Virus record (IMG/VR): IMGVR_UViG_2700989161_000006
Strand: one strand, 5' to 3'
From: a virus
Lineage: Duplodnaviria > Heunggongvirae > Uroviricota > Caudoviricetes
DNA: 24,501 nucleotides
The number at the start of each line of letters is the position of its first letter. Position 1 is the first letter of the stretch. The notes below the pieces were generated by a model. That model ran no database searches. It was not told where the DNA came from and saw only the letters and a list, made by a program, of their open reading frames with translations. Below, piece after piece: positions 8,357 to 8,682 of the stretch. Made by a program: the position numbers and the translations under genes.

Positions 8357-8515
8357 TTATGGCGATACCAGAGAGCTTTCTGCGTGTACATGCGTCTCTG
8401 TAACCTGCTCTCCTTCACTGTGGTTGCAAGTGACATGAATATCTCCTTCGTTACCGATTAATTCTTTCATATGACGAATGAATTCTTCGTCTGACCAGTT
8501 ATCTGTAAAACTCAT
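8357..8515 (-). CDS. Hypothetical small protein (52 aa) in the kil position, coupled to cIII
   Basis: ATG at 8515 overlaps the cIII-like stop (ATGA); MSFTDNWSDEEFIRHMKELIGNEGDIHVTCNHSEGEQVTETHVHAESSLVSP. Confidence 0.35.
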   Translation of the reverse strand: MSFTDNWSDEEFIRHMKELIGNEGDIHVTCNHSEGEQVTETHVHAESSLVSP

Positions 8516-8682
8516 GGACGGCCTTGTTGTTTCAAAATATCCCAAAGCTTTTCGAGCAAACTTTTCATTCTTGGTTGTTTAAAGTCTGCTCCGGTTAAAA
8601 TGTTTTTTCGTGAATGCTGTACCGATAAAATCGGGTTGAAAGGGCGAACCGATGCCGCCCCTGCAATAGCGAACTGTTGCAT
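8512..8682 (-). CDS. cIII: CIII-like protein (56 aa), not in ORF track
   Basis: ATG at 8682 with AAGGAG 6 nt upstream; MQQFAIAG... start and ...LWDILKQQGRP end resemble lambda CIII (MQYAIAG... / ...LIDILNQPGVP, from memory); expected position between erf and N. Confidence 0.5.
   Translation of the reverse strand: MQQFAIAGAASVRPFNPILSVQHSRKNILTGADFKQPRMKSLLEKLWDILKQQGRP

Follow-up and report, generated by a model that had tools for sequence, protein, structure and literature searches.

A putative divergent cIII gene followed by two overlapping micro-genes between ea10 and erf of a lambdoid prophage

What is encoded by the very small genes that lie between ea10 and erf in a lambdoid prophage, and is one of them a cell-division inhibitor? 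The question is raised by a stretch of DNA of 24,501 nucleotides (nt) from a virus of the Caudoviricetes (IMG/VR record IMGVR_UViG_2700989161_000006), referred to here at its full length as the window, in which an earlier note had proposed two coupled genes, one resembling cIII and one, directly after it, occupying the position of kil. Both open reading frames (ORFs) exist as they were described, the first, here called cIII56, running from an ATG at 8682 to 8512 and encoding 56 amino acids (MQQFAIAG...KQQGRP), and the second, ORF52, running from an ATG at 8515 to 8357 and encoding 52, with an ATGA at 8515..8512 that overlaps the TGA of cIII56. A third micro-ORF, at 8436..8266, had been overlooked; all three are on the minus strand. 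The statement that both proposed genes were missing from the list of ORFs of at least 60 codons is correct for cIII56, whereas the second is present there as a TTG-extended form of 62 amino acids (8545..8357). The explanation that we favor, and that taken as a whole we regard as likely, is that the segment from ea10 to erf holds three translationally linked micro-genes, not two: a remote homologue of cIII and, behind it, an overlapping pair of mini-genes of which neither appears to be kil.

The case for cIII56 begins upstream of its start codon. The preceding gene is ea10 (8759..9127, minus strand; Pfam DUF2528, expectation value (E) 1e-46), as in lambda, and its product differs from lambda Ea10 at two amino acids. 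In the leader of cIII56, a terminator scan found a terminator-like element, a G+C-rich hairpin with a run of T residues after it (8716..8735, minus strand), which is conserved in lambda and in HK97, where it is annotated as a putative terminator. A perfect Shine-Dalgarno sequence, AAGGAG (8689..8694, minus strand), stands 6 nt before the ATG, just as had been noted, and aligns with the ribosome-binding site (RBS) of lambda cIII. The match with lambda DNA extends from the 3' end of ea10 through the hairpin and the Shine-Dalgarno sequence into the first ~22 nt of cIII, beyond which the sequences diverge. Because the leader aligns with that of lambda through the RBS and the first cIII codons, cIII56 can be regarded as the positional orthologue of lambda cIII. 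Folding of the cIII leader recovered the upstream hairpin and no structure interpretable as lambda-like alternative structures.

The encoded protein points in the same direction. As first noticed, its two ends do resemble those of lambda CIII (MQ(Q)FAIAG against MQYAIAG and L.DILKQQGRP against LIDILNQPGVP), and it matches phrog_550 ('CIII') with E 1e-22. A search of 1.84 billion representative sequences (clustered at 50% identity) with a cIII56 profile found 35 representatives at E<=1e-3 in several enterobacterial genera, all sharing the core ...SIQHSR.NILTG.DF...KSLL.RL.E.L.Q.G.P. The family is a tight one of proteins of 53-63 amino acids, with homologues assigned by name to Escherichia, Salmonella, Enterobacter, Atlantibacter and Buttiauxella and others in Pseudocitrobacter and Yersinia genomes and in phages of Erwinia, Hafnia and Klebsiella. 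Some members have N termini (MQRYALAGLPVAG) and C termini (LIDAVNQRGNP) strikingly close to those of lambda CIII. A divergent cIII56-like N terminus in Yersinia similis (locus L102, 1328..1671), MIISIRGGTSMG, resembles MIIAIAGSARMG of P22 C3; this protein has no PHROG match. When a profile of the diverse family (A7) was compared with one of lambda and P22 CIII (A2), hhalign gave 87.8% and E 3.3e-6 with residues 2-56 of the query aligned to 1-43, an end-to-end alignment that carries ~13 inserted residues. The narrower cIII56 profile A1 reached only 64% against lambda/P22 CIII, over the C-terminal 19 columns. Weak matches to the Pfam Lambda_CIII model (PF02061) were given by 3 of 24 cIII56 relatives, all below threshold, the best with E 0.0032.

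In lambda CIII, residues 14-37 form an amphipathic helix that is both essential and sufficient, and a cIII- phenotype results from any one of the changes S17A, R24A, L26A, R27A and R32A (Kobiler et al., PMC1838920). In a pairwise alignment lambda R24, L26, R27 and R32 correspond to R25, M39, K40 and K45 of cIII56, so that conservative matches are found at four of these five residues; the 12-residue NILTGADFKQPR sits between K26 and M39, within a conserved segment SIQHSR.NILTGADFKQPR. Several observations weigh against a simple assignment to CIII. The insertion, of 12-13 residues and including G and P, breaks up what corresponds to the essential helix of lambda CIII. The AlphaFold2 (AF2) model of cIII56, with helices at 17-26, 31-34 and 37-53, is of low confidence (predicted local distance difference test (pLDDT) 64), and the best amphipathic moment, 0.67 for residues 42-55, compares with 0.81-0.90 for the CIII proteins of lambda, P22 and HK97 and was equalled in 8.6% of shuffles, which is not significant. 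No match of cIII56 at E<=1 was obtained with Pfam Lambda_CIII or cIII (PF08134), models against which lambda, P22 and HK97 CIII score 93-105 bits, and the search of 1.84 billion representatives reached no lambda-type CIII, so that the link to lambda CIII comes from profile-profile comparison and not from the profile search. NCBIfam has no model for cIII56, ORF52 or ORF56b (the name used here for the third micro-gene), and none of the three family profiles matched a sequence in the PDB.

The comparison with established systems puts these likenesses and differences in proportion. With lambda CIII and P22 C3 (PF02061, an FtsH inhibitor), cIII56 shares its locus after ea10 and the hairpin, its place as the first gene before the recombination genes, the RBS and first codons, the terminal motifs MQxAIAG and L.DILNQ.G.P and a CII-like partner gene. 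It differs in the 12-13-residue NILTGADFKQPR insertion in the region equivalent to lambda residues 14-37, in a shorter and less amphipathic helix, in its sub-threshold standing in Pfam and in having no overlapping kil downstream. With the CIII of HK022 and HK97 (PF08134), the second of the two classes, lambda and HK022, recognized by Kobiler et al. (PMC1838920), it shares position, upstream leader and a weak N-terminal similarity, but there is no Pfam match and hhalign gives only 17% over 25 columns; moreover, cIII56 runs directly into ORF52, where HK97-type cIII has its overlap with kil. On these sequence comparisons cIII56 appears to be a remote CIII homologue that constitutes a family of its own and a third sequence class. 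The proposal that it is cIII-like thus stands as regards position, leader and profile-profile homology, and gives way at the interrupted central helix and at the two Pfam models; alignment to the CIII family across that helix, which had been suggested as a check, is obtained end to end, yet with the helix region split by the insertion. A hybrid is seen in Sf6, where gp32 (locus L008, 636..767) combines a lambda-type CIII N terminus and helix with an HK97-type C-terminal end (LCAMK) overlapping kil; from this make-up it follows that cIII genes are themselves mosaics.

The most likely part for cIII56 is that of lambda CIII, whose family inhibits FtsH, stabilizes CII and is itself degraded by FtsH. 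It would then be an amphipathic peptide of short lifetime, competing with the CII-like activator of the phage for the host protease FtsH/HflB and so favoring lysogeny. The presumed beneficiary is encoded in the window (11604..11900, plus strand; phrog_191, E 1.6e-36; 35% identity to lambda CII, E 5e-8). Such inhibition of FtsH is a reasonable but unproven extrapolation. An alternative, which we consider possible though rather unlikely, is that cIII56 descends from cIII and is no longer an FtsH inhibitor, the conserved inserted motif giving it a different target. The broken essential helix and the weaker amphipathicity speak for such a change of target, as do the absence of kil alongside it in every case and the inserted motif itself (SIQHSR.NILTGADF), which is strongly conserved throughout the family and has no counterpart in lambda CIII. 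On the other hand, cIII56 stands in the regulatory context of lambda cIII, the prophage encodes a CII-like activator, and the C-terminal half of the helix and four of the five essential positions have been kept, all of which argue for retention of the original function.

The second gene was thought to be a cell-division inhibitor on the grounds that it occupies the position of kil. It is readily assigned to a family, though not to that one: ORF52 matches phrog_2123 over residues 1-52 of 52 (E 8.5e-41) and is 98% identical to the Sf6 gene 30 protein and 90% identical to HK022 gp42.1. This match and, over codons 1-21, a proportion of nonsynonymous changes below that of synonymous changes (pN<pS), together with the 35 representatives of cIII56, indicate that both genes are beyond chance. 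A kinship of ORF52 with Kil was tried and ruled out: it has no match to Pfam Lambda_Kil (PF06301), its family profile A5 gives 0.1% with HK97 Kil in hhalign, and four Kil proteins used as tblastn queries over the entire window gave noise only, with no homologue of kil, including the P22 type. ORF56b fared no better as a Kil candidate, its hhalign value of 9.7% falling to 3.3% with broader profiles, and it too has no Pfam match.

The arrangement of genes in relatives explains how ORF52 came to lie where it does. Among 87 loci carrying ORF52, 57 show the order cIII (of lambda or HK97 type), kil, ORF52, ORF56b and erf, with ORF52 a separate gene downstream of kil in all 57; 29 have cIII56 followed by ORF52, ORF56b and erf, with kil in none; the remaining one bears kil and is truncated upstream of it. 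The homologue of ORF52 likewise follows kil in Sf6, HK022 and HK97, whereas ORF52 here follows cIII56, and in phages of the kil type nucleotide similarity to the window starts exactly at 8515. The gene order in P22 is c3-kil-arf-erf. Thus, the normal place of ORF52 appears to be after kil, in the slot that arf holds in P22, and to judge from these comparisons kil is absent from the window, the cIII56 allele standing in for the cIII and kil pair of its relatives; ORF52 touches the cIII gene here because that allele replaces the pair.

It might still be argued that ORF52 acts as a functional Kil, an inhibitor of cell division that blocks assembly of the FtsZ ring and causes filamentation, by virtue of standing directly after cIII. 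Its start overlaps the cIII gene as that of kil does in lambda, HK97 and P22, the window has no other kil, and Kil families are diverse with little sequence in common (PMC9836094). However, with lambda Kil and P22 Kil it shares its small size and adjacency to cIII and no sequence or profile similarity, it coexists with a bona fide kil homologue upstream in every one of the Kil-bearing loci with a complete upstream region, as also in Sf6, HK022 and HK97, and constraint is confined to its first ~21 residues. We therefore hold this reading to be very improbable, and the claim of a division inhibitor loses its support with it. ORF52 would instead be the first of two overlapping mini-genes that head the recombination module of the phage, and its translation is probably coupled, by way of the ATGA, to that of the gene before it.

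The constant absence of kil beside cIII56 invites a bolder conjecture, namely that cIII56 is a functionally distinct third CIII class whose inserted motif provides a second or different host target and so makes kil dispensable. If true, it would explain why none of the 29 cIII56 loci has kil when all 57 lambda- or HK97-type loci do. We attach little credence to it at present.

What, then, might ORF52 do? The best available functional guess, made with low confidence, is that it serves the recombination module as an accessory peptide resembling Arf. P22 Arf (PF17585; MQHEFSDEEFIALI...) occupies the same slot between kil or cIII and the annealing gene, is of similar size and has an N-terminal (F/W)SDEEFI motif and, after it, an acidic tail in common with ORF52. 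ORF52 matches the Arf family of PHROG (phrog_2445) weakly, at E 0.035, and one public source labels a relative of ORF52 'accessory recombination function protein'. A number of points speak against the guess. The hhalign result for ORF52 and Arf is only 28% with E 6e-4, over 19 columns of 42% identity, and represents a short motif; none of six ORF52 family members matches Pfam Phage_Arf at E<=10, a model against which P22 Arf itself scores 121 bits. The likeness is thus limited to ~19 residues, and P22 arf abuts erf directly, without a gene like ORF56b. In HK140 and SEN22, an ORF52-type peptide also forms the N terminus of a 35-residue ORF that precedes RecT or nuclease modules, and a role specific to Erf is made doubtful because the same peptide precedes modules of the RecT and Sak4 types. 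Arf aids recombination and is not essential, and its molecular mode of action is unexplained (PMC12315714).

The third micro-gene starts inside the second. ORF56b (8266..8436, minus strand) has 56 codons in the +1 frame relative to ORF52, overlaps it by 80 nt and has a Shine-Dalgarno sequence of its own, GAAGGAG (8443..8449, minus strand), inside ORF52 and 6 nt before its ATG. It is a full-length member of phrog_1723 (Sf6 gp29/HK97 gp42; E 8e-36), and from Sf6 gene 29 and HK97 gp42 it shows no notable difference, whether in the overlap or in its place ahead of the annealing gene; the +1 overlap between Sf6 gene 30 or HK022 gp42.1 and the next gene is annotated in the same form. The internal Shine-Dalgarno sequence is identical in HK022 and appears as GAAGGAGG in the divergent Enterobacter phage MII_001, with weaker sites in other divergent pairs. 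The divergent pairs come from Salmonella phage SPN9CC, from MII_001 and from a prophage of Pseudocitrobacter, and every one of them retains the +1 offset, an overlap of 80-95 nt and a site resembling a Shine-Dalgarno sequence before the second ATG, GAAGGAG itself being confined to the closest pairs; in each, the first start codon overlaps the stop of the upstream gene (ATGA or GTGA). In the Yersinia similis prophage, the cIII56-like gene is joined by ATGA to an ORF56b-like gene followed by erf, and there is no ORF52.

Substitution counts distinguish the two frames. Codons 1-21 of ORF52 have pN/pS of ~0.3-0.45, with pN<pS in every divergent comparison. Inside the overlap, pN<pS holds for the ORF56b frame in 10 of 10 pairs, while the ORF52 frame has pN>=pS; for ORF56b, pN<pS applies along the whole length. 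It follows that ORF56b is constrained throughout and that ORF52 consists of a selected N-terminal peptide and an unconstrained tail. To judge from these counts, ORF52 would be a selected stretch of ~21 residues (MSFTDNWSDEEFIR.M) continued by a mostly acidic tail that is overprinted on ORF56b. Two ORF52 variants, P0048 and P0074 (from Salmonella Chester and E. coli), have 2-3 tandem copies of EFIRQMK in the conserved N-terminal peptide.

These data bear on the suggestion that ORF52 has no function as a protein and is a relay, passing ribosomes on or opening mRNA structure for ORF56b and erf. Coupling by ATGA or GTGA to whichever gene lies upstream, cIII56 or kil, speaks for a relay, and the unconstrained C-terminal half, a length that ranges from 35 to 60 amino acids among relatives and the absence of the gene from the Yersinia relative are all consistent with it. 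Against it, the amino acid sequence of the first ~21 residues has been kept while synonymous changes accumulated, to the extent of the pN/pS values given above, and it is conserved across different recombination modules; P22 Arf, for which there is a genetic phenotype (PMC12315714), begins with a related motif. A pure relay is accordingly an improbable alternative to a selected peptide.

A different objection is that ORF52 and ORF56b are one gene, of the HK97 gp42.1 type, that has been split by a frameshift, being either a pseudogene or subject to programmed +1 frameshifting. HK97 Gp42.1 (83 amino acids) does hold both parts in a single frame, its ORF52-like N-terminal part (residues 1-43) being fused to residues 20-56 of ORF56b (gp42), and several database proteins of ~82 amino acids are fusions at differing points within the overlap. 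Comparison of HK97 (locus L001, 1531..1782) with the window at 8515..8266 traces the fusion to two separate 1-nt insertions (GCATGTCACACGCGAG against GCATGT-ACACGC-AG), by which HK97 departs from the split arrangement common to the window, to HK022 and to the divergent MII_001. Of 87 loci with the pair, 83 have the 52-residue split form and only HK97, represented by two records of one phage, has a fusion; most of the fusions in databases come from singleton assemblies. The HK97 form either arose secondarily or goes back to an old sequencing error. In addition, ORF56b has its own conserved RBS and ATG, the Yersinia locus carries it without ORF52, and the overlap shows no purifying selection in the ORF52 frame. 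Programmed +1 frameshifting was considered separately and found unlikely, since the ORF52 stop (CCA-UAA) offers no slippery +1 site and the positions of the stop vary among relatives. That the two are a single gene therefore seems highly improbable, and we return to the reading of a conserved, overprinted pair.

The position of ORF56b within that pair is of interest for its possible function. It always lies immediately upstream of a gene for strand annealing, which encodes Erf or, in MII_001 and the Pseudocitrobacter prophage, a Sak4-like protein. In the window, erf (7650..8258, minus strand; Pfam ERF, E 2e-44; phrog_155, E 1e-57) encodes the single-stranded DNA-annealing protein and begins 7 nt past the ORF56b stop codon, and in MII_001 and SPN9CC that stop (TTC-TGA-GG..) lies inside the RBS of the annealing gene. 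AF2 predicts a helical hairpin for ORF56b, with helices at residues 7-26 and 30-51 (pLDDT 92). ORF56b would start at its own GAAGGAG and ATG, and its product would probably be a partner of the annealing protein or modulate it. On the other side, fold searches of the PDB and BFVD returned generic helical hairpins, none at E<=1e-3. Homology of ORF56b to Arf was looked for and not found.

The wider context of these genes is that of a P22-like, lambdoid prophage. The left end of the window (157..3977) carries proB, proA, tRNA-Thr(CGU) at 2727..2802 and an integrase gene at 3977..2817, an order from which a prophage at the thrW site follows; it is inserted at this tRNA-Thr gene, beside proBA. The segment 8266..8735, between ea10 and erf, is part of the leftward early operon, transcribed from pL and antiterminated by N. 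That operon includes genes for an N-like antiterminator (10287..9952, minus strand) and, overlapping and directly following it, a Nun-like transcription-termination factor (9955..9611, minus strand; phrog_5632, E 5e-71), and beyond erf it includes ssb (7740..7267, minus strand) and abc2 (7243..6950, minus strand). Three further terminator-like hairpins occupy the gap at 9154..9612. To the right of the operon are genes for a CI-like repressor, a Cro-like protein and the CII-like activator. An Rfam scan of the window found tRNAs only; two phage-borne tRNA genes, for Asn(GTT) and Thr(TGT), lie on the plus strand at 17663..17818, in the late-regulatory region.

The full cassette is present in 213 of 5,426 complete E. 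coli genomes (~4%), and the pair formed by ORF52 and ORF56b in 1,113 of them (~20%). All three are already present, and partly annotated, in the sequenced phages Sf6, HK022, HK97, HK542 and mEpX1, cIII56 is already catalogued in lambdoid phages, and the finding is to this extent an ordinary one. Its main importance lies in annotation. The identical cIII56 protein has been labeled by depositors 'putative cIII protein' (mEpX1), 'CIII-like protease inhibitor' (a Hafnia phage) and 'CIII anti-termination' (RefSeq), and the NCBI Prokaryotic Genome Annotation Pipeline, for example in E. coli CUPF09 (locus L094, 1690..1945), records it as hypothetical and leaves ORF52 and ORF56b unannotated. The labels derived from PHROG, 'CIII anti-termination' and, for phrog_1723, 'recombinase', are misleading and have no visible basis.

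Beyond annotation, the residual interest lies in a putative third CIII class from whose loci kil is always missing, and in a conserved overprinted pair. A CIII class in which the essential helix is broken would be a natural test of what inhibition of FtsH requires, and its distribution illustrates that lysogeny modules occur both with and without kil. The overprinted pair, tied as it is to annealing proteins of both the Erf and the Sak4 types, might in turn clarify the function of Arf in P22.

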